This document shows positions 1,356 to 25,886 of a stretch of 31,048 bases of DNA, one piece after another (position 1 is the stretch's first letter; each line of letters opens with the position of its first letter). The stretch is from the UHGV virus genome UHGV-0096129, one strand, 5' to 3'. The notes under the pieces were generated by a model. That model saw only the letters and a list, made by a program, of their open reading frames with translations, was not told the origin of the DNA and did not search any database. The DNA comes from a virus. Both the position numbers and the translations under genes were made by a program.

Positions 1356-1627
1356 GTATTCGTATTGAAATTGGCGAACGTTATGTCGTTACCAGTGACA
1401 GCTTTCAGTTTATTCTCCACGAGAAAAAGAGAGCGGAAAGCGGTAAAAACGCCGGTCAGGAATGGCTGGCGGTGGTTGGTTATTATCCGAAATTAAGCCA
1501 GCTCGTTTCCGGCCTGATGCATCACGATATTCTGACCGGAAGCGCAAAGTCTTTTGCTGATTTAAACGCGCAGGTTGAGCAACTCAGCAGGCGTTGTTCA
1601 GAGGCTTTTGGCTCATATGGCCGTTAA
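1352..1627 (+). CDS. Small early protein, P2 orf83-position hypothetical
   Basis: 91-aa ORF coupled to the upstream gene (overlap 1352-1355). Its 3' end overlaps the gpA start at 1617. Confidence 0.6.
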   Translation: MSIRIEIGERYVVTSDSFQFILHEKKRAESGKNAGQEWLAVVGYYPKLSQLVSGLMHHDILTGSAKSFADLNAQVEQLSRRCSEAFGSYGR

Positions 1628-3902
1628 AGCCTCCGGGCGTTTTGTCCCTCCGTCAGCATTTGCTGCAGGCACCGGTAAGGCGTTTACCGGTGCTTATGCA
1701 TGGAACGCGCCACGCGAGGCCGTCGGGCGCGAAAGACCCCTTACACGTGACGAGATGCGTCAGGTGCAAGGTGTTTTATCCACGATTAACCGCCTGCCTT
1801 ACTTTTTGCGCTCGCTGTTTACTTCACGCTATGACTACATCCGGCGCAATAAAAGCCCGGTGCACGGGTTTTATTTCCTCACATCCACTTTTCAGCGTCG
1901 TTTATGGCCGCGCATTGAGCGTGTGAATCAGCGCCATGAAATGAACACCGACGCATCGTTACTGTTTCTGGCAGAGCGTGACCACTATGCGCGCCTGCCG
2001 GGAATGAATGACAAGGAGCTGAAAAAGTTTGCCGCCCGTATCTCATCGCAGCTTTTCATGATGTATGAGGAACTCAGCGATGCCTGGGTGGATGCGCATG
2101 GCGAAAAAGAATCACTGTTTACGGATGAGGCTCAGGCTCACCTGTATGGTCATGTTGCTGGCGCTGCACGTGCTTTCAATATTTCCCCGCTCTACTGGAA
2201 AAAATACCGTAAAGGACAGATAACCACGAGGCAGGCATATTCTGCCATTGCCCGCCTGTTTAACGATGAGTGGTGGACTCATCAGCTTAAAGGCCAGCGT
2301 ATGCGCTGGCATGAGGCGTTACTGATTGCTGTCGGGGAGGTCAATAAAGACCGTTCTCCTTATGCCAGTAAACATGCCATTCGTGATGTGCGTGCGCGCC
2401 GCCAGGCAAATCTGGAATTTCTTAAATCGTGTGACCTTGAAAACAGGGAAACCGGCGAGCGCATCGACCTTATCAGTAAGGTGATGGGCAGTATTTCTAA
2501 TCCTGAAATTCGCCGGATGGAGCTGATGAACACCATTGCCGGTATTGAACGTTACGCCGCCGCAGAGGGTGATGTGGGGATGTTTATCACGCTGACCGCG
2601 CCGTCAAAGTATCACCCGACACGTCAGGTCGGAAAAGGCGAAAGTAAAACCGTTCAGCTTAATCACGGCTGGAACGATGAGGCATTTAATCCAAAGGATG
2701 CGCAGCGTTATCTCTGCCGTATCTGGAGCCTGATGCGTACGGCATTCAAGGATAATGATTTACAGGTCTACGGTTTGCGTGTCGTCGAGCCACACCACGA
2801 CGGAACGCCGCACTGGCATATGATGCTTTTTTGTAATCCACGCCAGCGTAACCAGATTATCGAAATCATGCGTCGCTATGCGCTCAAAGAGGATGGCGAC
2901 GAAAGAGGAGCCGCGCGAAACCGTTTTCAGGCAAAGCACCTTAACCGGGGCGGTGCTGCGGGATATATCGCGAAATACATTTCAAAAAATATCGACGGCT
3001 ATGCACTGGATGGTCAGCTCGATAACGATACCGGTAAGCCGCTTAAAGATACTGCCGCGGCTGTTACCGCATGGGCGTCAACGTGGCGCATCCCGCAATT
3101 TAAAACGGTTGGACTGCCGACAATGGGGGCTTACCGTGAACTACGCAAATTGCCTCGCGGCGTCAGTATTGCTGATGAGTTTGACGAACGCGTCGAGGCT
3201 GCTCGCGCTGCCGCAGACAGTGGTGATTTTGCGTTGTATATCAGCGCGCAGGGTGGGGCAAATGTCCCGCGCGATTGTCAGACTGTCAGGGTTGCCCGTA
3301 GCCCGTCGGATGACGTTAACGAGTACGAGGAAGAAGTCGAGAGAGTGGTCGGCATTTACGCGCCGCATCTCGGCGCGCGTCATATTCATATCACCAGAAC
3401 GACGGACTGGCGCATTGTGCCGAAAGTTCCGCTCGTTGAGCCTTTGACTTTAAAAAGCGGCATCGCCGCGCCTCGGAGTCCTGTCAATAACTGTGGAAAG
3501 CTCACCGGTGGTGATACTTCGTTACCGGCTCCCACACCTTCTGAGCACGCCGCAGCAGTGCTTAATCTGGTTGATGACGGTGTTATTGAATGGAATGAAC
3601 CGGAGGTCGTGAGGGCGCTCAGGGGAGCATTAAAACACGGCCTGAAAACACCAAATCGTCAACAAAGAAACGGAAGCCCGTTAAAAACACATGAAATTGC
3701 ACCGTCGGCCAGACTGACCCGGTCGGAACGAATGCAAATCACCCGTATCCGCGTTGACCTTGCTCAGAACGGTATCAGGCCTCAGCGATGGGAGCTTGAG
3801 GCGCTGGCGCGTGGAGCGACCGTAAATTATGACGGGAAAAAATTCACGTATCCGGTCGCTGATGAGTGGCCGGGATTCTCAACAGTAATGGAGTGGACAT
3901 AA
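1617..3902 (+). CDS. A: Replication initiation endonuclease gpA (rolling-circle HUH nickase)
   Basis: From the ATG at 1617 the product is 761 aa, the recalled P2 A length. It has the HUH-type metal motif PHWHMMLF and the catalytic tyrosine motif GYIAKYISKN. In P2 the replication origin lies inside the 3' part of this gene; I cannot pin down the nick site here. Confidence 0.95.
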   Translation: MAVKASGRFVPPSAFAAGTGKAFTGAYAWNAPREAVGRERPLTRDEMRQVQGVLSTINRLPYFLRSLFTSRYDYIRRNKSPVHGFYFLTSTFQRRLWPRIERVNQRHEMNTDASLLFLAERDHYARLPGMNDKELKKFAARISSQLFMMYEELSDAWVDAHGEKESLFTDEAQAHLYGHVAGAARAFNISPLYWKKYRKGQITTRQAYSAIARLFNDEWWTHQLKGQRMRWHEALLIAVGEVNKDRSPYASKHAIRDVRARRQANLEFLKSCDLENRETGERIDLISKVMGSISNPEIRRMELMNTIAGIERYAAAEGDVGMFITLTAPSKYHPTRQVGKGESKTVQLNHGWNDEAFNPKDAQRYLCRIWSLMRTAFKDNDLQVYGLRVVEPHHDGTPHWHMMLFCNPRQRNQIIEIMRRYALKEDGDERGAARNRFQAKHLNRGGAAGYIAKYISKNIDGYALDGQLDNDTGKPLKDTAAAVTAWASTWRIPQFKTVGLPTMGAYRELRKLPRGVSIADEFDERVEAARAAADSGDFALYISAQGGANVPRDCQTVRVARSPSDDVNEYEEEVERVVGIYAPHLGARHIHITRTTDWRIVPKVPLVEPLTLKSGIAAPRSPVNNCGKLTGGDTSLPAPTPSEHAAAVLNLVDDGVIEWNEPEVVRALRGALKHGLKTPNRQQRNGSPLKTHEIAPSARLTRSERMQITRIRVDLAQNGIRPQRWELEALARGATVNYDGKKFTYPVADEWPGFSTVMEWT

Positions 3903-4354
3903 TGGCAAAAATTCACGAGGTAAAGCTGCACGCAAAATATTTTGACCTTGTGCTGGAAGGAAAGAAACGCGCAGAGTTTCGGAAAAATGACCGTAATTAT
4001 GAGCGCGGGGACACGTTGATTTTGCATGAATGGGTGCAGGGTGTGTATACGGGGCGAAAGGTTGAAGCCCAGATAACAGATGTTACTGACCTGTCAGACT
4101 GGCTGGAAGATTATGTCTTGCTAAGTATTGAGCGGCTTAATACAGGCGCATGTGAGATTGTGAACTGGAAAGAACTTAGTGAGCGTGGTCTGGTATTCAG
4201 AATTAATCATGAAATTATGCATCAGCTCGGCCTTGCTGTTATGTATGAACCAGAGACGGGGATGTCTGGCGGGGCAATGGTTGCCACGGATGGAGCATGG
4301 AACTATTCAGATGAACAGATTGAGCGTGCACAGCAAAACGGGTGGCTTGGATAA
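3902..4354 (+). CDS. ASCH/DUF3850-like domain protein with a C-terminal extension
   Basis: The start ATG at 3902 overlaps the gpA stop (TAATG). The N-terminus KIHEVKLHAKYFDLVLEGKKRAEFRKNDRNYERGDTLILHEW looks like the DUF3850/ASCH beta-barrel signature seen in phage early regions. The C-terminal ~75 aa are unassigned. Confidence 0.65.
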   Translation: MAKIHEVKLHAKYFDLVLEGKKRAEFRKNDRNYERGDTLILHEWVQGVYTGRKVEAQITDVTDLSDWLEDYVLLSIERLNTGACEIVNWKELSERGLVFRINHEIMHQLGLAVMYEPETGMSGGAMVATDGAWNYSDEQIERAQQNGWLG

Positions 4355-4560
4355 TGCACAGAATACCAGGTGAGATACCGCACCATAAAACTAAAAATAT
4401 CAAGCTGATGGCTATTGTTCAGCGTTTGCAGCAGATTATGGTCAACGAAAATCTGACGCCCGATGAGCTGGTCGGGTGTGCCGAAATAGTCCGGGATAAT
4501 TACGGGCGGTTTAACCATATCGGTCAATCCAGAGTTATGCCACCACCACGCAGACGATAG
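4342..4560 (+). CDS. Possible small hypothetical protein (start uncertain; ATG at 4408 is an alternative)
   Basis: 72-aa ORF with backbone-like composition. No convincing Shine-Dalgarno at either start. It is the last ORF before the composition changes. Confidence 0.3.
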   Translation: MAWIMHRIPGEIPHHKTKNIKLMAIVQRLQQIMVNENLTPDELVGCAEIVRDNYGRFNHIGQSRVMPPPRRR

Positions 4561-4789
4561 AGAACGCCGCCAGTCGTGAAACTTGTTTTCAGGGCTGGCG
4601 GGGTTGAACAACGAGCGAAGCGAGGCGTTAGTTGACAGTAATATTTTTACTGCGTTGGTGCTGTTTTTTGACGGTTGAAAGGAGTTAGCTCGGAGAGCTA
4701 AAGCTAACAACTTACAAATATTCAAAAGTAAGCTTCCTGTTGCTAACATAAGGTCGATTTTTTATGTGGATGATGCAAAAAGGATAGCT

Positions 4790-5521
4790 ATGGATACTGT
4801 AATCGCTTTTCTATCACTCGCTTTTTTCGTTGCTTTTTTCATCGGATTAATCAAACCATCACTGGTGCGGATGCCAAACCGTAAAAGTGCAAGTGCGGTT
4901 TATCTCGGAGGAGGTTTTGTATTGAGCATAATTGGTTCAATACTCTATCCAACAGAAAAAAGCCAGCCAGTTGCTAAAACTGAAACATCAACCGTTGCAG
5001 AACACCAAGTCCAAAAAAAATTCGAATATGGTGGAAAAACACTCAAGGAATATCGGAACGAGCCAAAGAAAACTCGACACGATATTGTGAATAGTTACAT
5101 TGATTTTAAGGAAGTGCCAGTCACCGCATCAGATGCATTTTATGCCTGCATGAGTGAATATACTTTTACCAAAGATGATGAGTTGAAACTCGGTGATGTT
5201 CTTGGATGGTGCTTTAATGATTATGAAAAAGATCCGAAATCACTAAACAATAAAATCAACCTTGATACATTTCAGAGTAATTTTAGCGGTTGGGATGGTT
5301 CTTATCGACCATTGGAAAAGCTAATTAAAGAGAATATGAACGATGATTCATCTTATAAACATGTGTCAACAGTGTATCATTTGGTTTTGAATAAAGATCC
5401 GCACGCCATTGTGAAAACAACATTTCGCGGAACTAATGCTTATGGCGGAGTGGTGAAACAGACCGTTGCGGCGCGCGTCAATGTTCGAACTGGTGAGGTA
5501 ACTTCAATAATTGATAACTAA
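4790..5521 (+). CDS. Two-TM membrane protein with a ~190-aa predicted periplasmic C-terminal domain; function unknown
   Basis: ORF 4766-5521. I prefer the ATG at 4790 (AGGA at 4781-4784, 5-nt spacer), giving 243 aa. There are two hydrophobic helices (VIAFLSLAFFVAFFIGLI and AVYLGGGFVLSIIGSILY). They are separated by a basic loop (KPSLVRMPNRKSAS), which under the positive-inside rule places the C-terminal domain outside the cytoplasm. Confidence 0.7.
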   Translation: MDTVIAFLSLAFFVAFFIGLIKPSLVRMPNRKSASAVYLGGGFVLSIIGSILYPTEKSQPVAKTETSTVAEHQVQKKFEYGGKTLKEYRNEPKKTRHDIVNSYIDFKEVPVTASDAFYACMSEYTFTKDDELKLGDVLGWCFNDYEKDPKSLNNKINLDTFQSNFSGWDGSYRPLEKLIKENMNDDSSYKHVSTVYHLVLNKDPHAIVKTTFRGTNAYGGVVKQTVAARVNVRTGEVTSIIDN

Positions 5522-5545
5522 AGTGAAGGGCTAGGCCATGTTATG

Positions 5546-5574
5546 TTTAAGCCATAATATGGCTTTTTTATGAT
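5546..5574 (+). promoter_or_regulatory. Candidate sigma70 promoter for the 198-aa gene
   Basis: TTTAAG (5546-5551), a 17-nt spacer, then TATGAT (5569-5574), about 30 nt upstream of the ATG at 5604. AT-rich context makes chance matches likely. Confidence 0.25.
5550..5569 (+). terminator. Weak rho-independent terminator candidate after the membrane-protein gene
   Basis: AGCCATAATATGGCT (5-7 bp stem) is followed directly by a T6 run ending at 5569, 29 nt after the stop codon. The stem is short and AT-rich. Confidence 0.35.
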
Positions 5575-5603
5575 TTGGGTAAATTGATAAGGAGTCGATT
5601 TAA

Positions 5604-6200
5604 ATGAATTCAAAAAAAAGGAATAAATACCTCAAGTTAATGTTTGAGTGTAGAAAAAGAATTGAAACGCTACATGATTTAGCATCCGGACATACAGGAG
5701 GACTTTATCTTCAAGTTTTAATAGAAATAGAAGCGTTACAACTCAGAAAGTTATTGGAGCTTATCGCATTTTCATCGTTAATTTCATATGAGGAATCCTA
5801 TAAGACTGTTGCGAAGAGTATTGATGGTGTATGGAAAGCCAAGCGTATTATAAGTGAGTTAGAAAAAATAAATCCAAATTTTTACCCGTTACCTGTATCA
5901 TCATTTACCAATGACGGGTGGAAGAAATTGAAAGGTGGATATTTAACAAAAAAACAATTTATTGCACTGTATGATGAATGTTCAACTCATATTCATGTTA
6001 GAAACCCATACAGGATAAGCGAAAACTCGCTGGCTTTTCATAGAAAAGTACCTTCATACTTAGAGAGAATTGAATGTTTATTATCTAAACATATTGTTTC
6101 ACTTGTAGATGATAGGGAGTTTCTTTTTGTAGAGGTACCTCATTTTGAAGATTCGGCTACCCCTCTAAGAATTAGATGTTTAATTAAAAATAGAGGGTAA
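5604..6200 (+). CDS. Hypothetical cytoplasmic protein, 198 aa, no recognised domain
   Basis: Strong RBS (AAGGAG at 5589-5594, 9-nt spacer). AT-rich codon usage like its neighbours. Predicted mostly helical, with no TM segment or signal peptide. Confidence 0.75.
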   Translation: MNSKKRNKYLKLMFECRKRIETLHDLASGHTGGLYLQVLIEIEALQLRKLLELIAFSSLISYEESYKTVAKSIDGVWKAKRIISELEKINPNFYPLPVSSFTNDGWKKLKGGYLTKKQFIALYDECSTHIHVRNPYRISENSLAFHRKVPSYLERIECLLSKHIVSLVDDREFLFVEVPHFEDSATPLRIRCLIKNRG

Positions 6201-6446
6201 ATTTTTATTATCCCTTAATGATAACTTACATTAGTTATGATAAAAGTTTGATAACGTCAGTAGTGCTGGAGCTGTCCTTCAGCACTGATGGAGTTGAACA
6301 ATGAGCACTTCTGGACGTTATATTAATACTGATATAGTTAGTGGTTTTATTCTAAATTATTAGCGTAGCGCCGAAACTCACTATTTACAATGGTGGGGTA
6401 ACGCTGAAAGAACCGGAGCGTAGATATCTTTTTTTACTGAAAAATT

Positions 6447-6468
6447 GTGGTCAATATTGCTTGACCAC
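6447..6468 (-). terminator. Candidate terminator hairpin downstream of the FRG gene
   Basis: Perfect 8-bp stem GTGGTCAA / TTGACCAC with a 6-nt loop. On the minus strand it is followed by AATTTT, 4 nt, then an A-run. It lies about 150 nt beyond the minus-strand stop at 6617. The U-tract is short. Confidence 0.3.
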
Positions 6469-6616
6469 TATACAGCGTCAGTTCAAACTACAATTAATAA
6501 AGTTAAGGTTCATAGCCTTTTTGAAGGGTACGTATCCAAGAGGCCTGTGCTCACTATGTGGTAAAGAGTCAAAATATCGTTATGTCTGATTCTTACGCAC
6601 AATTGTAATATTTCTT

Positions 6617-7972
6617 TTAAATGTCAGACATATATTTCTTTGCGATTTCAGAAGCTGTCTTTTCTATACTTGGATAAACAGTGCTCTCAGTAATGTTCAA
6701 TTGTGCAAGTTCTTTCAAGATTATTTTTTTATTAACTATGTCAACTCTGTCAAGAGGAAAGTCTTCTGTTGTCTCTGGGAGTACTGCCTCGTGACCAAAT
6801 AATAGAAATGCGCCAGACTGTGATTGAATGCGTTCATTATTTATTCTGGCGCGGATGAATAGTATTTTCCGAAGATCATGCAGGTCTATATTTTTTTTAA
6901 AATATGGTTTTTCAGCTTGAATATGATCTAAAAGTTTATTGAGTAGTTCTTTTGCGTGAGATTTGTCGTTTTCAATTAAGCTTTTTGATATAGTGCTTAA
7001 GATATTGTGTGGCATAAATGCCAGATTGGCTATACAGCTAACAGTATCAGAGTCAAAATATTTGATATTTTTTCTTTCTGTAGGAAACGAGATGACTTGT
7101 CCGGTGTCTTCAGGATCTTCACAGCATGCAAAATATAAAGCAATTAGCGGGTTGGATGTAATATCTAGCAATCTTGTAGGTAAACCATAATGCTGCATTC
7201 TAACTAATTTATCGATCGTAAAATTATCAGATATAAATTCATTAGGCCTTGCTGACAGAATTTCACGAACCATAGATGATTCTGAATCAAGGTGCTTATG
7301 AGTCCCGTTATCATGTTTCCGGAAAAGAGATGGGATAAGTTCATATTTATTTCGTGAATGTCCTCTATAAAAAATTTCAGAGTTTGAATTGTTGGATTTT
7401 TCTATAAAACTGATATATTCCTTTAAGCTCTTTATTTTTCTTATTTTTGATGTTCTTTTGATGTTTCCAATTTTGGAGGTGTTAGAGAGAATTTTTTCAG
7501 TTGTATCGTTTTTGGTTTTATTTAGCTCAAGTTTTAGCAGTGTTTCTCTTAATTTTTTATCTTTAACTGCCCAGTGGGTTCTGCTAAGACCATAAGCACC
7601 TAAGTCTAATATTTCTTTATATTGTTTTATTTCGGGGTTCTTGATTTCGCCAAAATCATGAACGATTTCAAAGTGATAACAAACATCATCATTGTCTATG
7701 TGTAAGTTGCCGACTTTTCCAAGTCTTACTCTTAAATATCTATTTTTGTCACCGTCTTTATCGTATATTTCAGTCATGAAAAGAACAGGTAGCTTAGATA
7801 GAGCGTCTAAAGTTATAGGGCTTACTGGTGTTAATTTTTTATAAAGTAAGGATGGTGTACCTTCTAGCATTCGGGAAAGAGAGAAACTATCTTCCCCATT
7901 TTTAATATTAGGATCCATAGATGGCCATCTATCAAACACAGAGGGCTCACCCCCGATAATGAGATTAAACAT
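6617..7972 (-). CDS. FRG-domain protein with an uncharacterised ~185-aa N-terminal domain
   Basis: 451 aa, with GGAG 7 nt upstream of the ATG. FRG-family signatures are present: FYRGHSRNKYELIPSLFR (res 201-218), MQHYGLPTRLLDITSNPLIALYFAC (res 259-283) and NERIQSQSGAFLLF (res 379-392). A Lys/Arg-rich linker (res ~165-185) precedes the domain. Confidence 0.85.
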   Translation of the reverse strand: MFNLIIGGEPSVFDRWPSMDPNIKNGEDSFSLSRMLEGTPSLLYKKLTPVSPITLDALSKLPVLFMTEIYDKDGDKNRYLRVRLGKVGNLHIDNDDVCYHFEIVHDFGEIKNPEIKQYKEILDLGAYGLSRTHWAVKDKKLRETLLKLELNKTKNDTTEKILSNTSKIGNIKRTSKIRKIKSLKEYISFIEKSNNSNSEIFYRGHSRNKYELIPSLFRKHDNGTHKHLDSESSMVREILSARPNEFISDNFTIDKLVRMQHYGLPTRLLDITSNPLIALYFACCEDPEDTGQVISFPTERKNIKYFDSDTVSCIANLAFMPHNILSTISKSLIENDKSHAKELLNKLLDHIQAEKPYFKKNIDLHDLRKILFIRARINNERIQSQSGAFLLFGHEAVLPETTEDFPLDRVDIVNKKIILKELAQLNITESTVYPSIEKTASEIAKKYMSDI

Positions 7973-8230
7973 TCTAACTCCTTTTTACTTAAGAAATGAC
8001 ATTGATTGTCTTAATGTTGTCGTAAGGGCGATGTAGATTGCCAGATCTGATTCAGCACTACCAGAGAAAACTGTCAGTCTATGTTTGACTCTGTGGGAAG
8101 GTAGTTTTGCGTACATTATTGCATCAAATTGCATTTGCTATTATTTGGCCTTTCATACAAATGAGCTCAAAACTGACGTGCTTTCGCCTGGCTTATACAT
8201 TTGCATCAAAACCGACCCATGAAGCGGGCG

Positions 8231-8249
8231 GGCGAGGCGGGGAAAGCAC
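8231..8249. other. cos: cos cohesive-end sequence (P2-type, 19 nt)
   Basis: GGCGAGGCGGGGAAAGCAC matches the P2 cohesive-end sequence I recall. It is correctly placed just beyond the portal gene Q. Confidence 0.85.
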
Positions 8250-8391
8250 TGCGCGCTGGCGGTGGTGCTGATTTTATTTTTTCAGCGTCTGAGCGCGTCG
8301 TGATGGCGTTTAAATTGTGCGCTGGGGCGTTGCTGTGTCTGCGGGCTGTTTTGTGCGGTGGTGAGCGTGTGAGGGCGTGATGACGGGATGT

Positions 8392-8413
8392 AAAAAAGCC
8401 GCCCGCAGGCGGC
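8392..8413 (-). terminator. Rho-independent terminator of the P-Q operon
   Basis: On the minus strand: GCCGCC-TGCG-GGCGGC (6-bp GC stem, 4-nt loop) followed by TTTTTT, starting 6 nt after the Q stop codon. Confidence 0.7.
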
Positions 8414-8418
8414 GATGT

Positions 8419-9453
8419 TCAGCCGTTGTCAGTGTCCAGTGAGTAGTTTTTAAAGCGGATGACCTCCTGACCGAGCCAGCCGTTTATTTCCCGAATCCTG
8501 TCCTGTAACGGGATAAGCTCATTGCGGACAAAGACCTTTGCCACTTTCTCAATATCGCCCAGCGACCCGACATTCTCCGGCTTACCGCCCATCAACTGAA
8601 AGGGGATGCGGTGTGCGTCCAGCAGGTCAGCGGCGCTGGCTTTTTTGATATTAAAAAAATCGTCCTTCGTTGCCACTTCACTGAGCGGGATAATTTTAAT
8701 ACCGTCGGCTTTTCCCTGTGGGGCGTAGAGAAACAGGTTTTTAAAGTTGTTGCGGCCTTTCGACTTCACCATGTTTTCGCGAAGCATTTCGATATCGTTG
8801 CGATCCTGCACGGCATCGGTGACGTACATGATGTATCCGGCATGTGCGCCATTTTCGTAATACTTGCGGCGGAACAGCGTGGCCGACTCATTCAGCCAGG
8901 CAGAGTTAAGGGCGCTGAGATATTCCGGCAGGCCGTACAGCTCCTGATTAATATCCGGCTCCAGCAGGTGAAATACGGAGCCGGGCGCGAAAGGTGTCGG
9001 CTCGTTGAAGGACGGCACCCACCAGTAAACATCCTCCTCCACGCCACGGCGGGTATATTTTGCCGGTGAGGTTTCCAGTCTGATGACCTTACCGGTGGTG
9101 CTGTAACGCTTTTCCAGAAACGCATTACCGAACACCAGAAAATCCAGCACAAAGCGGCTGAAATCCTGCTGGGAAAGCCACGGGTGCGGGATAAACGTTG
9201 AAGCCAGAATATTACGTTTGACGTAAATCGGTGAGCTGTGATGCACGGCAGCACGCAGACTTTTTGCCAGACCGGTAAAGCTGACCGGCGGCTCATACCA
9301 TCTGCCGTTACTGATGCATTCGACGTAATCCAGAATGTCACGGCGGTCGAGTACCGGCACCGGCTCGCCAAAGGTGAATGCCTCCATTTTCGGGGCGCTG
9401 GCGGTCATTGTTTTTGCCGCAGGTTGCGGTGTTTTCCCTTTTTTCTTGCTCAT
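8419..9453 (-). CDS. Q: Portal protein gpQ
   Basis: 344 aa, the recalled P2 Q length. It is divergent from O and lies next to cos, as in P2, and is coupled to P (shared base 9453). Confidence 0.95.
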   Translation of the reverse strand: MSKKKGKTPQPAAKTMTASAPKMEAFTFGEPVPVLDRRDILDYVECISNGRWYEPPVSFTGLAKSLRAAVHHSSPIYVKRNILASTFIPHPWLSQQDFSRFVLDFLVFGNAFLEKRYSTTGKVIRLETSPAKYTRRGVEEDVYWWVPSFNEPTPFAPGSVFHLLEPDINQELYGLPEYLSALNSAWLNESATLFRRKYYENGAHAGYIMYVTDAVQDRNDIEMLRENMVKSKGRNNFKNLFLYAPQGKADGIKIIPLSEVATKDDFFNIKKASAADLLDAHRIPFQLMGGKPENVGSLGDIEKVAKVFVRNELIPLQDRIREINGWLGQEVIRFKNYSLDTDNG

Positions 9454-11225
9454 CAGTAAAACTCCAGAATGGTGGATGTCAGCGGGGTGCTGATACCGGC
9501 GGTGAGTGGCTCATTTAACAGGGCGTGCATGGTCGCCCAGGCGAGGTCGGCGTGGCTGGCTTCCTCGCTGCGGCTGGCCTCATAGGTGGCGCTGCGTCCG
9601 CTGCTGGTCATGGTCTTGCGGATAGCCATAAACGAGCTGGTGATGTCGGTGGCGCTGACGTCATATTCCAGACAGCCACGGCGGATAACGTCTTTTGCCT
9701 TGAGCACCATTGCGGTTTTCATTTCCGGCGTGTAGCGGATATCGCGCGCGGCGGGATAGAACGAGCGCACGAGCTGGAACACGCCGACACCGAGGCCGGT
9801 GGCATCAATCCCGATGTATTCAACGTTATATTTTTCGGTGAGTTTGCGGATGGATTCCGCCTGGGTGGCAAAGTCCATGCCTTTCCACTGGTGACGCTCA
9901 AGTATTCTGAATTTGCCACCGGCCACCACCGGCGGTGCCAGCACCACGCATCCGGCGCTGTCGCCACGGTGTGACGGGTCGTAACCAATCCATACCGGGC
10001 GGGAGCCGAACGGATTGGCGGCAAACGGCGCATAGTCTTCCCATTCTTCCAGCGTGTCGACCATGCAGCGTTGCAGCTCCTCGAACGGGAACACCGACGC
10101 CTTGTCGTCAACAAATTCACACATGAACAGGTTTTTAAAATCGTCGGCGCTGTTTTCACGTTTGAGCTGCTCAATGTCGAACAGCGTGCAGCCACCTTTC
10201 AGGGCGTCCTCAATGGTGACAATCTGCCGCCACTGGCCGTCCGCACAGAGAAGCCCACCGGCAAGGGCGTTATGACTGACGTCGATTTCCACGCGTTCGG
10301 CGGCGCTGGCGCGTCCCCGGTTGAACAGTTCACCTGACCAGAACGGGTAGGCGTCGTGCGCCAGCGTGGACGGGGTGGAGAAATAGGTCGAGCGCAGGTG
10401 ACTCTGTGAGGCCATACCTGATGCCACCTTACGCAGTACCTGAAAATTCGGGATCCAGAAAATCTCGTCGACGTACAGGTCGCCGTTATGGCTCTGTGCG
10501 GTGTTGGAGTTGGTGCCGAGAAAAATCAGTTTTGCGCCGTTATTGCCCAGGACAATCGGGTCACCGGTCAGGTCAATGTCAACCAGACGGGCAAAGGCGA
10601 TGATGTATTCACGGAACACATACGCCTGCGTTTTACTGGCCGACAGAAAAATCTGGTTATGACCGGTTTTCAGGGCGCGCAGCAGCGCCTCGCGGGAAAA
10701 ATAAAACGTCGCGCCAATCTGGCGGGATTTCAGGATATCGCGGATGCGGTGCTCAAGCCCGGCGCGATACCAGTGCAACTGATAGTCGAAAGACTGCTCA
10801 AAGAAAATCTGCTCCAGCTTTTCGATGGCCTCGTCACTGAAAAAATTCTTTTTCGGTTTGCGCCGCCCGCCTTTGTTGCGGTTAGCGACGTTCGGATTAA
10901 GGTCTGCCTCGTTGCCGGTCTGGCTGTAACGGTTGACCCGTGCCAGTCGTTCAATCTGGCGTCCGAGCAGGTCAATTTCCTTGAAGTCACCGCCGGTTTT
11001 CTGCGGTTTGATGATGAGCTGGGTCAGCCGCGCTTCCAGACTCATTTCGACACGGCTGATGGGGGCAACGCTGTCCCAGCCGTCGCGCTGTTTCCAGCTC
11101 TGCACCGTCGGGCGTTTCATCTGCAACATGGCGGCAATCTGCGGCACGGAAAACCCCTGCCAGTACAGCAGCGCCGCCTGACGACGCGGGTCGTGTAAAA
11201 GAGTGGTGTCTGTGGTGATGGTCAT
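9453..11225 (-). CDS. P: Terminase large subunit gpP
   Basis: From the ATG at 11225 (GAGG 6 nt upstream) the product is 590 aa, the recalled P2 P length. It has an N-terminal HTH-like region and an ATPase/nuclease-sized body. Confidence 0.95.
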   Translation of the reverse strand: MTITTDTTLLHDPRRQAALLYWQGFSVPQIAAMLQMKRPTVQSWKQRDGWDSVAPISRVEMSLEARLTQLIIKPQKTGGDFKEIDLLGRQIERLARVNRYSQTGNEADLNPNVANRNKGGRRKPKKNFFSDEAIEKLEQIFFEQSFDYQLHWYRAGLEHRIRDILKSRQIGATFYFSREALLRALKTGHNQIFLSASKTQAYVFREYIIAFARLVDIDLTGDPIVLGNNGAKLIFLGTNSNTAQSHNGDLYVDEIFWIPNFQVLRKVASGMASQSHLRSTYFSTPSTLAHDAYPFWSGELFNRGRASAAERVEIDVSHNALAGGLLCADGQWRQIVTIEDALKGGCTLFDIEQLKRENSADDFKNLFMCEFVDDKASVFPFEELQRCMVDTLEEWEDYAPFAANPFGSRPVWIGYDPSHRGDSAGCVVLAPPVVAGGKFRILERHQWKGMDFATQAESIRKLTEKYNVEYIGIDATGLGVGVFQLVRSFYPAARDIRYTPEMKTAMVLKAKDVIRRGCLEYDVSATDITSSFMAIRKTMTSSGRSATYEASRSEEASHADLAWATMHALLNEPLTAGISTPLTSTILEFY

Positions 11226-11398
11226 GAATACCTCGCCGTGATGAATACACGGCAAGGCTACTTAGTCGCGCCCCGCGATTCGCTAAGGTGCTGTTGTGTC
11301 AGTGATAAGCCATCCGGGACTGATGGCGGAGGATGCGCATCGTCGGGAAACTGATGCCGACATGTGACTCCTCTAATCACTATTCAGGACTCCTGACA

Positions 11399-22836: not shown

Positions 22837-23364
22837 ATGCAGCATTTAAAAAATATTACTGCGGGTAATCCAAAAACTGTTGCCCAATATCAACTGACAA
22901 AAAATTTTGATGTTATCTGGTTATGGTCCGAAGAGGGAAAAAACTGGTATGAGGAAGTAAGTAATTTTCAGGAAGACACGATAAAGATTGTTTACGATGA
23001 GAATAATATAATTGTCGGCATCACCAGAGATGCTTCAACGCTCAACCCTGAAGGTTTTAGCGTTGTCGAGGTTCCTGATATTACCGCCAACCGACGTGCT
23101 GATGACTCAGGTAAATGGATGTTTAAGGATGGTGCCGTGATTAAGCGGATTTATACGGCAGACGAACAGCAACAACAGGCAGAATCACAAAAGGCCGCGT
23201 TACTTTCCGAAGCGGAAAGCGTTATTCAGCCACTGGAGCGCGCTGTCAGGCTGAACATGGCAACAGATGAGGAGCGTAGCCGACTGGAAGCATGGGAACG
23301 CTACAGTGTTCTGGTCAGCCGTGTGGATCCTGCAAATCCTGAATGGCCGGAAATGCCGCAATAA
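22837..23364 (+). CDS. G: Tail fibre assembly chaperone gpG (Tfa family)
   Basis: 175 aa directly after H. The C-terminal motif ([30 protein letters not shown]) is typical of Tfa/gpG chaperones. Confidence 0.85.
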
Positions 23365-23515: not shown

Positions 23516-24295
23516 TTAAAATATCCAACTGATAAATCCACCTGAATACTTTTCACTAATTTTGATTGCATAAAGATCATGAAGAGTTATAAATAAATCA
23601 TTATCTTCTTTGAAAATTAACTCCTCATATTCTGCCATTATCAAATTATGCTGTGTTGTTAGTTTAGATATGTTATCTATTTCACTGGCAAGCATGGATT
23701 TGTTTACATTGGTGTGTGGATCCATGGCAATATATTTCCGCATCAATGGAATTAGTTGATCAGGGTCTATATTTTTTGCATTTTCCTTTGCTTTTTTTTG
23801 TCTTTCTGAATAGATGGAGTTAATTGTGTCAGTGTGTTTTTTCGCCAGTCTCTTAAACTCTGGATATGAACCAGTAACTAATGCAAGCTCTTCGTACTTA
23901 AGGAATAAATCGATATTGCATTTTTTTACCGTCATTTCAAGATCTTCAACTCTTTTTTTTAACTCTTCATTTGTTTTAATAAGAGACATCGGGAGAACTT
24001 CATAATGTTGTCCTAATTCTGAATCAGGGCTCATTGCCATATGTACTATTTCATTATACATGAGCTGATAAGAAGCAGATAACTCTCCATACTTTAGAAA
24101 TAGTTCATTATGTGAAGATGAACAAGAACTTTGTAATTTCATCATTGGCCTAAAGTAATCCTTTATAAACTCCTCCTGAAGATCTTGGTCTTTTTTGTAG
24201 CTCTCTAGGATTCCAGCAAAAAGAAATGACCCTAAAGATATAGAGATTATGGATATTAGCAATTGACTAAGGAATGATTGTGTTTCATTACTCAT
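23516..24295 (-). CDS. Membrane-anchored helical protein, 259 aa, unknown function (cargo at the P2 Z/fun position)
   Basis: AGGA 8 nt upstream of the ATG. One N-terminal TM helix (FLSQLLISIISISLGSFLFAGIL), then a Lys/Glu-rich helical region. Very AT-rich (about 25% G+C in line 23581-23640 by hand count). It is antisense to the flanking late operons. Confidence 0.75.
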   Translation of the reverse strand: MSNETQSFLSQLLISIISISLGSFLFAGILESYKKDQDLQEEFIKDYFRPMMKLQSSCSSSHNELFLKYGELSASYQLMYNEIVHMAMSPDSELGQHYEVLPMSLIKTNEELKKRVEDLEMTVKKCNIDLFLKYEELALVTGSYPEFKRLAKKHTDTINSIYSERQKKAKENAKNIDPDQLIPLMRKYIAMDPHTNVNKSMLASEIDNISKLTTQHNLIMAEYEELIFKEDNDLFITLHDLYAIKISEKYSGGFISWIF

Positions 24296-24695: not shown

Positions 24696-25886
24696 ATGAG
24701 TGACTATCATCATGGCGTGCAGGTGCTGGAGATTAACGACGGCACCCGCGTCATTTCCACTGTATCCACGGCCATTGTCGGCATGGTCTGCACGGCCAGC
24801 GATGCGGATGCGGAAACCTTCCCCCTCAATAAACCGGTGCTGATTACCAATGTGCAGAGCGCAATTGCAAAGGCCGGTAAAAAAGGCACGCTGGCGGCAT
24901 CGTTGCAGGCCATCGCCGACCAGTCAAAACCGGTCACCGTTGTCGTGCGTGTGGAAGACGGCACCGGCGACGACGAGGAAACGAAACTCGCGCAGACCGT
25001 TTCCAATATCATCGGCACCACTGACGAAAACGGTCAGTACACCGGACTGAAAGCCCTGCTGGCGGCGGAGTCGGTAACCGGTGTTAAGCCGCGCATTCTC
25101 GGTGTGCCGGGACTGGACACCAAAGAGGTTGCCGTCGCACTGGCATCAGTCTGTCAGAAGCTGCGCGCTTTCGGGTATATCAGCGCATGGGGCTGTAAAA
25201 CCATTTCTGAGGTGAAAGCCTACCGCCAGAATTTCAGCCAGCGTGAACTGATGGTTATCTGGCCGGATTTCCTCGCATGGGATACGGTCACCAGTACCAC
25301 CGCCACCGCGTATGCCACCGCCCGTGCGCTGGGTCTGCGTGCAAAAATCGACCAGGAGCAGGGCTGGCATAAAACGCTGTCCAACGTCGGGGTAAACGGT
25401 GTTACCGGCATCAGTGCCTCTGTATTCTGGGATTTGCAGGAGTCCGGCACCGATGCTGACCTGTTGAACGAGTCAGGTGTCACAACGCTGATTCGCCGTG
25501 ACGGTTTCCGCTTCTGGGGTAACCGTACCTGCTCTGATGACCCGCTGTTCCTCTTTGAAAACTACACCCGCACCGCGCAGGTGCTGGCCGACACGATGGC
25601 TGAGGCGCACATGTGGGCGGTGGACAAGCCCATCACTGCAACGCTGATTCGCGACATCGTTGACGGCATCAATGCCAAATTCCGTGAGCTGAAAACAAAC
25701 GGCTATATCGTGGATGCGACCTGCTGGTTCAGCGAAGAATCCAACGATGCGGAAACCCTCAAGGCCGGAAAACTGTATATCGACTACGACTATACACCGG
25801 TGCCTCCTCTTGAAAACCTGACCCTGCGCCAGCGTATTACCGATAAATACCTGGCAAATCTGGTCACTTCGGTTAACAGCAATTAA
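24696..25886 (+). CDS. FI: Contractile tail sheath protein FI
   Basis: 396 aa, P2 FI length and position. Confidence 0.95.
   Translation: MSDYHHGVQVLEINDGTRVISTVSTAIVGMVCTASDADAETFPLNKPVLITNVQSAIAKAGKKGTLAASLQAIADQSKPVTVVVRVEDGTGDDEETKLAQTVSNIIGTTDENGQYTGLKALLAAESVTGVKPRILGVPGLDTKEVAVALASVCQKLRAFGYISAWGCKTISEVKAYRQNFSQRELMVIWPDFLAWDTVTSTTATAYATARALGLRAKIDQEQGWHKTLSNVGVNGVTGISASVFWDLQESGTDADLLNESGVTTLIRRDGFRFWGNRTCSDDPLFLFENYTRTAQVLADTMAEAHMWAVDKPITATLIRDIVDGINAKFRELKTNGYIVDATCWFSEESNDAETLKAGKLYIDYDYTPVPPLENLTLRQRITDKYLANLVTSVNSN

Follow-up and report, generated by a model that had tools for sequence, protein, structure and literature searches.

The 31,048-nt virus genome UHGV-0096129, the whole of which is referred to here as the window, is a P2-like (Peduovirus-type) Escherichia coli prophage with genes for gpA, portal, terminase and scaffold proteins. 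At positions 5604-6200 of its plus strand, between replication gene A and portal gene Q, it encodes a 198-aa protein that is identical or near-identical to WP_064773178; the RefSeq annotation of a near-identical locus agrees with this placement. This gene is real and strongly conserved, and it travels by itself, as a unit of one gene, between phage hotspots, integron arrays, plasmids and other islands. It is autonomous, without a conserved partner. An anti-phage role, to which its contexts and published base rates point, is a serious possibility that stops short of being probable.

A preliminary description of the window had called the protein an orphan, a label overturned by database searches. 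The protein matches phrog_13799 over its full length (E 9.7e-93, residues 1-196 versus profile positions 1-196 of 198), and a single-sequence search returned 80 homologs, about 200 aa long, in Enterobacterales, marine Gammaproteobacteria, Betaproteobacteria, Acidobacteriota and other taxa. A family profile search matched 1,530 proteins. With an exhaustive hidden Markov model search the family grew to 2,614 clusters (50% identity) at E ≤ 1e-3, including 579 at E ≤ 1e-30, almost all of about 200 aa. It carries no name: none of its clusters matched Pfam, NCBIfam or PADLOC, no metabolic family was matched, and no domain was detected in any of the members of 270-378 aa checked for fusions. The protein itself, described earlier as having no recognisable domain, indeed had no match in Pfam, NCBIfam or PADLOC (PADLOC-DB 2.0, 0 families at E ≤ 1). 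The only Pfam match among 43 aligned family members was a weak one of 4 of them to DUF7717 (PF24835), over the first two helices. The best of these matches (24.3 bits, E 3.8e-5; residues 7-55 versus profile positions 50-98 of 117) falls under the gathering score (27) and covers the first hairpin only; the window protein has no such match and DUF7717 has no assigned function. Literature main texts searched for the accession and for DUF7717 yielded nothing.

Across 283 diverse members, the conserved residues of the N-terminal part are R19 (95%), E41 (97%), Q46 (89%), R48 (100%), K49 (94%) and E52 (100%). They are joined by Y66, W77, N90-P91-x-F93-Y94-P95-x-P97, L114-T115 and Y123 and, in the C-terminal half, by H131 (100%), N134 (97%), P135 (98%) and H163 (98%). 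The family motifs read LQLRKxLELIAFSSL, INPNFYPxP and LTKxxFxxLYDxCGxxLHxxNPF. From this alignment, the polar set R19, E41, R48, K49, E52, H131-x-x-N134-P135 and H163 suggests a catalytic or ligand-binding site. The residues singled out previously, H129, H131 and R133, include the invariant H131, but the other two are not conserved. RIETLH, noted as the only motif-like element, is present and its R19 is conserved, but H24 varies and the string is not a conserved motif; the caution expressed then over reading it as a HEPN motif was right, because H24 is not conserved. The key residues are now R48, E52, H131, N134 and H163, instead of R19/H24 or H129/R133.

The family occurs as an integron gene cassette. 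Among marine Gammaproteobacteria and other taxa (Shewanella, Halopseudomonas, Marinobacter, Neptuniibacter, Halomonas, Natronospira, Dasania, Marinomonas, Vibrio and Paraglaciecola), homolog starts carry a conserved GTTAAAC-GGTAAAGC-ATG sequence that contains the G|TTRRRY core, GTTAAAC lying 7-8 nt ahead of the ATG. At the other end, the TAA stop codon is part of a TAACAA R'' box, which opens a 57-130-nt imperfect hairpin that ends in GTTRRRY. When 26 of these attC sites, truncated to their ends, were aligned, 77% of the cells in the R and L stems were paired, versus at most 42% with slid partners, and compensatory changes were seen in 10 pairs; covariation thus supports the attC structure. 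A covariance model built from this alignment replaced strict RYYYAAC/GTTRRRY and minimum-free-energy heuristics, which were too insensitive. It produced 43 matches at E ≤ 1, every one of them on the gene's strand. In at least 14 loci (L006-L010, L012, L013, L015, L016, L020, L041, L045, L057 and L069) an attC begins at the homolog's own stop codon. The model was trained mostly on Marinobacter and Shewanella sites, and it found only two attC sites of the integron at L069, so that counts based on it are lower bounds.

That integron, in Alteromonas sp. KUL17 (L069, 203-20618), is complete and of the sedentary type. It is headed by a divergent 322-aa IntI-type recombinase (Phage_int_SAM_4 plus Phage_integrase), and its array comprises dozens of small same-strand open reading frames (ORFs) together with reversed ParE/Phd and ParE/ParD toxin-antitoxin cassettes. 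The homolog lies about 9 kb in, and an attC scoring 36.6 bits is located at its stop codon. On the 193-kb Halomonas plasmid pHAL1 there are two cassettes (L057, 5989-7819), one with the homolog and one with a 351-aa hypothetical protein, and an attC match follows each; this array adjoins an ISL3 transposase and a mer operon. Several further copies stand alone as solo cassettes, next to housekeeping genes or an insertion sequence. Three of them (L014, 8001-8597; L008, 8001-8597; L066, 8877-9440) retain the 5′ boundary described above or an adjacent attC, and the genes upstream encode a DEAD-box helicase, a thiolase and an acyl-CoA ligase. The retention of these marks despite housekeeping genes upstream suggests insertion at secondary sites outside integrons. 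Since each cassette holds a single ORF, the protein must be able to function with no dedicated partner.

No attC accompanies the window copy. The covariance model gave no match in the window or in the other P2 loci and, with filters off, its best score over positions 4300-8450 was 11.7 bits, inside another ORF, with nothing at the ends of the gene. A hairpin at 6246-6299, or another part of the island, was considered as an attC relic and rejected, the best score of the model at the hairpin being 5.4 bits.

Further homologs were found in varied company, some of it defence-like. On an Oligoflexales contig (L033, 26-5675) a 218-aa homolog overlaps both of its neighbours, a SNF2 helicase (982 aa) and an N6/N4 DNA methylase (683 aa), in an operon that looks like a restriction-modification-like or DISARM-like module. 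In Nitrosospira the homolog comes after a phage tail gene and a Fic gene, other homologs adjoin toxin-antitoxin (HigB or HicB) cassettes, and on a 6.6-kb Paracoccus plasmid the homolog is one of eight genes. At two loci (L060, 6001-9999; L061, 886-4884) it is followed directly by an HTH_17 (excisionase-like) gene, a 310-aa ORF and an AAA_25 protein; this setting looks like the margin of a small integrative element or of a satellite. The remaining neighbours are housekeeping genes.

In the window the gene is cargo of the interval between gpA and gpQ, and the following features were located in and next to that interval:

1575-3902, plus strand: P2 gpA-type replication endonuclease, the left boundary of the hotspot
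3866-4354, plus strand: DUF3850/ASCH protein gene, semi-conserved, after gpA
4342-4560, plus strand: 72-aa ORF, overlapping the DUF3850/ASCH gene
4766-5521, plus strand: membrane-protein gene (phrog_3403), upstream of the gene under study
5533-5565, plus strand: terminator-like hairpin of 13 pairs with a T-run after it, separating the membrane-protein gene from the gene under study
5588-5594, plus strand: Shine-Dalgarno sequence TAAGGAG, 9 nt before the ATG, read from the sequence
5604-6200, plus strand: coding sequence of the gene under study, 198 aa, ATG start and TAA stop, read from the sequence
6246-6299, plus strand: stable hairpin without a T-run, 46 nt past the stop codon (ΔG -23.9 kcal/mol, z -4.2)
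6617-7972, minus strand: 451-aa FRG-domain protein, convergent with the gene under study (Pfam PF08867, E 9e-23; PADLOC PDC-S15, E 5.7e-98)
8419-9453, minus strand: portal protein gpQ, the right boundary of the hotspot
9453-11255, minus strand: terminase, P2 core

The ORF and its well-formed ribosome-binding site were thus as first reported. Its composition was also described correctly as like that of the island: guanine-plus-cytosine (GC) content is 32.3% in the gene, 38.5% in the membrane-protein gene and 33.5% in the FRG gene, versus 53-57% in the phage core. The island as a whole (33-38% GC) spans approximately positions 4500-8000 between gpA and the portal gene, while the window overall has 51%. 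No tRNA or tmRNA genes were found in the window. The earlier statement that the protein has no transmembrane segment holds as well (maximum Kyte-Doolittle hydropathy 1.29 over 19 aa), and the protein is soluble. It is basic, with an isoelectric point (pI) of 9.4; the family is not consistently so (median pI 8.2, below 6.5 in 25%).

The gpA-gpQ interval is the old/tin locus of P2, a documented hotspot of anti-phage systems that is home also to a cytolethal distending toxin and to partition systems; of 8 additional systems tested from it, only 3 were protective (PMC9122126). WP_064773178 itself appears in Table S5A of Rousset et al. 2022, in the arrangement 'FRG + hypothetical x3 + DUF3850/ASCH', and a 70%-identical allele is the curated single-gene system #58 of Table S5B, with 70 occurrences and no domain; neither is in that study's tables of tested systems (PMC9122126). 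The gene has thus been catalogued before, as a P2 hotspot system without annotation, and the locus itself is known. What is new here is how large the family is, that it occurs as an integron cassette, and which residues are conserved after correction; none of these points was noted in the literature examined. Like the single-gene cargo of this hotspot, such as Tin, Old and the DUF4238 protein validated by Rousset et al. 2022, the gene is one low-GC ORF with its own translation signals, at the same locus and with a patchy distribution. At the level of sequence or profile, however, it resembles neither Tin nor Old nor any validated system.

Among 5,426 complete E. coli genomes, 2,155 contain the hotspot flanks and 28 the gene. 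Seven of the 28 have the present allele together with the whole island, and 21 have a second allele of 73% nucleotide identity. This second allele is the sole cargo in the E. coli loci examined (A / DUF3850 / small ORF / gene / Q), and a homolog is likewise the sole hotspot cargo in Yersinia phage vB_YpM_50.

This distribution bears on the membrane-protein gene, with which the preliminary description had proposed that the gene might be paired, as a cytoplasmic effector or regulator. In the window the two are adjacent, on the same strand and, as reported, 82 nt apart (the membrane-protein ORF ends at 5521), and the same adjacency recurs in an Enterobacter locus (L003), as a two-gene system would predict. 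However, co-occurrence across genomes, which had been put forward as a check, is not conserved. The membrane gene precedes an unrelated 232-aa or 429-aa protein in other prophages (L054, 1991-2722; L055, 1991-2722), and 21 E. coli genomes, the Yersinia phage and every integron cassette have the gene but lack the membrane gene. When all ORFs of 53 loci were clustered, no conserved neighbour of the homologs emerged beyond P2 core genes. In addition, the terminator-like hairpin at 5533-5565 argues for separate transcription units. As each gene is found without the other, with a hairpin between them and no conserved neighbour, pairing is not supported and is largely refuted by the distribution; we consider a two-gene system with the membrane protein very improbable. 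That protein acts as a semi-conserved left-hand gene of the hotspot, and its two alternative cargo proteins, like the protein studied here, have no Pfam or PADLOC match. A weak promoter-like element, TTTAAG-17-TATGAT, overlaps the 3′ side of the 5533-5565 hairpin; it was identified by eye and is below the scan threshold.

Downstream of the gene, the 6246-6299 hairpin and about 110 nt of 3′ sequence are kept with it in two P2-like elements, Enterobacter L003 and IMG/VR L048, as seen by alignment. This hairpin is probably a 3′ end or an mRNA-stabilising structure. In the other E. coli allele its place is taken by an intrinsic terminator of the usual kind.

The preliminary description had proposed structure prediction followed by Foldseek to place the protein. 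An AlphaFold2 model based on a 43-sequence alignment was confident (predicted local distance difference test, pLDDT, 89.9; predicted template modelling score, pTM, 0.88), but the HEPN toxins that rank first in Foldseek do so only at E > 1. The model has two long helices (3-27 and 36-59), two short ones (63-73 and 79-89) and two further long ones (116-130 and 142-161), with a beta-hairpin at 96-108 and a small C-terminal sheet at 162-193. Comparison with HEPN-clan bundles, namely the DUF86 MNT-HEPN toxins 7ae2 and 5yep and the 23S rRNA-IVS/S23-family structure 2rld, gave non-significant scores, equal to those of generic hairpins. Relative to these bundles, the protein has an additional insert of about 55 residues, made of the two short helices and the beta-hairpin with its NPxFYPxP motif, as well as a C-terminal three-stranded sheet, and it lacks Rx4-6H.

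The model had no match in BFVD, and a profile search of PDB sequences returned one chance match (E 1.4). None of the HEPN Pfam families was matched by any of the 43 members even at E ≤ 10, and none of the PADLOC abortive-infection (Abi)/HEPN models by the protein. An hhalign comparison of the family profile with one HEPN_MAE_28990 protein, taken from a paper supplement, gave a probability of 0.2%. Nor is there an arginine 4-6 residues before the invariant H131 or before H163, positions -4 to -7 from H131 being S/G, C, E/K and D. Given the Foldseek values, the silence of BFVD, of the PDB profile search and of the HEPN Pfam families, and the missing Rx4-6H motif, the protein appears weakly HEPN-like, in shape only, and we do not class it as a HEPN protein. 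An RNase toxin of the canonical HEPN kind, using R19 and H24 of RIETLH or some other Rx4-6H site, would account for the weak structural resemblance and for the conservation of R19. It would have to do so with a variable H24, no arginine suitably placed before either histidine, silent HEPN models and, according to the clustering of neighbours, no antitoxin-like partner; we hold it to be scarcely credible.

Integron cassettes offer a parallel to the mode of life of the family. About one third of the unknown cassettes of mobile integrons are phage-resistance genes (bioRxiv 10.1101/2024.07.02.601719), and the phage-resistance cassettes recovered in published screens (BRiCs) include single-gene HEPN-type Abi proteins (bioRxiv 10.1101/2024.07.02.601719; 10.64898/2026.03.17.712381), of the AbiV and AbiU2 types. 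The family shares with BRiCs the one-ORF cassette with an attC at the stop codon, the settings (sedentary integrons, solo cassettes and a plasmid) and a helical protein of about 200 aa. It differs from them in matching no Abi or HEPN profile, and the window copy differs in having no attC; none of the published BRiC descriptions (10.1101/2024.07.02.601719; 10.64898/2026.03.17.712381) matches the family.

On these grounds, the gene is an autonomous, horizontally mobile single-protein accessory module, present here as cargo of the P2-like gpA-gpQ hotspot. It is most likely expressed from the lysogen, and its product may act alone as an anti-phage factor of the superinfection-exclusion or abortive-infection type. 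The case for such a role is drawn from the base rate of the P2 hotspot (3 of 8 further systems), from the proportion of about one third among unknown integron cassettes, from the neighbouring PDC-S15 candidate and from the helicase/methylase operon. A stand-alone abortive-infection protein, one of the options raised at the outset, would fit a gene that is the sole cargo of an anti-phage hotspot in other P2-like phages and forms a one-ORF cassette elsewhere. A nucleic-acid-directed activity is the leading guess, suggested by the weak resemblance of the bundle to the HEPN clan and by the basic character of the query protein (family median pI 8.2). Any catalytic mechanism is inferred from the pattern of conservation and from weak fold similarity only. 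A more specific proposal is that the family constitutes a new, widespread class of one-protein anti-phage effectors, shuttling between integron arrays and phage hotspots and built around a non-canonical, split HEPN-like site, with R48 and E52 on helix 2 and with H131-xx-NP and H163 after later helices; in this full form we consider it unlikely.

Two other readings compete with an anti-phage factor. The protein might be a small enzyme or binding protein without any part in defence, hitch-hiking in variable regions while it confers some other niche advantage in stress, small-molecule modification or nucleic-acid metabolism. Many non-defence genes travel in integron cassettes and P2 hotspots, no defence model was matched, an invariant Arg/Glu/His/His set would suit many types of enzyme, and many copies sit beside housekeeping genes. 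However, the family recurs in anti-phage-enriched slots of two unrelated kinds of mobile element, one copy belongs to the helicase/methylase operon, and metabolic families were as silent as defence models, which leaves this reading rather doubtful in our judgement. We find it distinctly improbable, in turn, that the protein serves the phage or mobile element itself, through counter-defence, an anti-satellite (anti-P4) action or regulation related to lysogeny. Such a factor could well be phage-borne, basic, a helical bundle without the catalytic signature of a known family, and the sole cargo of a plaque-forming P2-like phage. Yet most members reside outside phages, in chromosomal integron arrays and solo cassettes where a function of this kind would not be maintained, and basicity is not a consistent property of the family.

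If the anti-phage reading is true and the protein blocks phages, the family would be a compact addition to the known defence families, about 200 aa in size, needing no partner, numbering thousands of members and lacking any annotated domain. It would also show concretely how a single gene travels among integron arrays, plasmids and the hotspots of temperate phages. If the shuttling effector class also proves true, it would link two 'defence biobanks' so far described separately. Even without a function, the annotation is corrected: the protein is neither an orphan nor paired with the membrane gene.

Other cargo accompanies the gene in this prophage. The FRG-domain protein (6617-7972), by its match to the PADLOC candidate family PDC-S15, is a second, independent candidate defence gene in the hotspot. 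At the left edge, the DUF3850/ASCH protein also matches DUF7415; together with the 72-aa ORF (3866-4560) it occupies this position in many P2-like prophages, and both look semi-core rather than variable cargo. Another cargo ORF of low GC (32-40%), encoding 259 aa and with no Pfam or PADLOC match, was found on the minus strand at 23516-24295. It is flanked by the tail-fibre assembly gene (22837-23364) and by the next tail gene (24696-25886), a position that we take, from the gene order of P2, to be the Z/fun locus.
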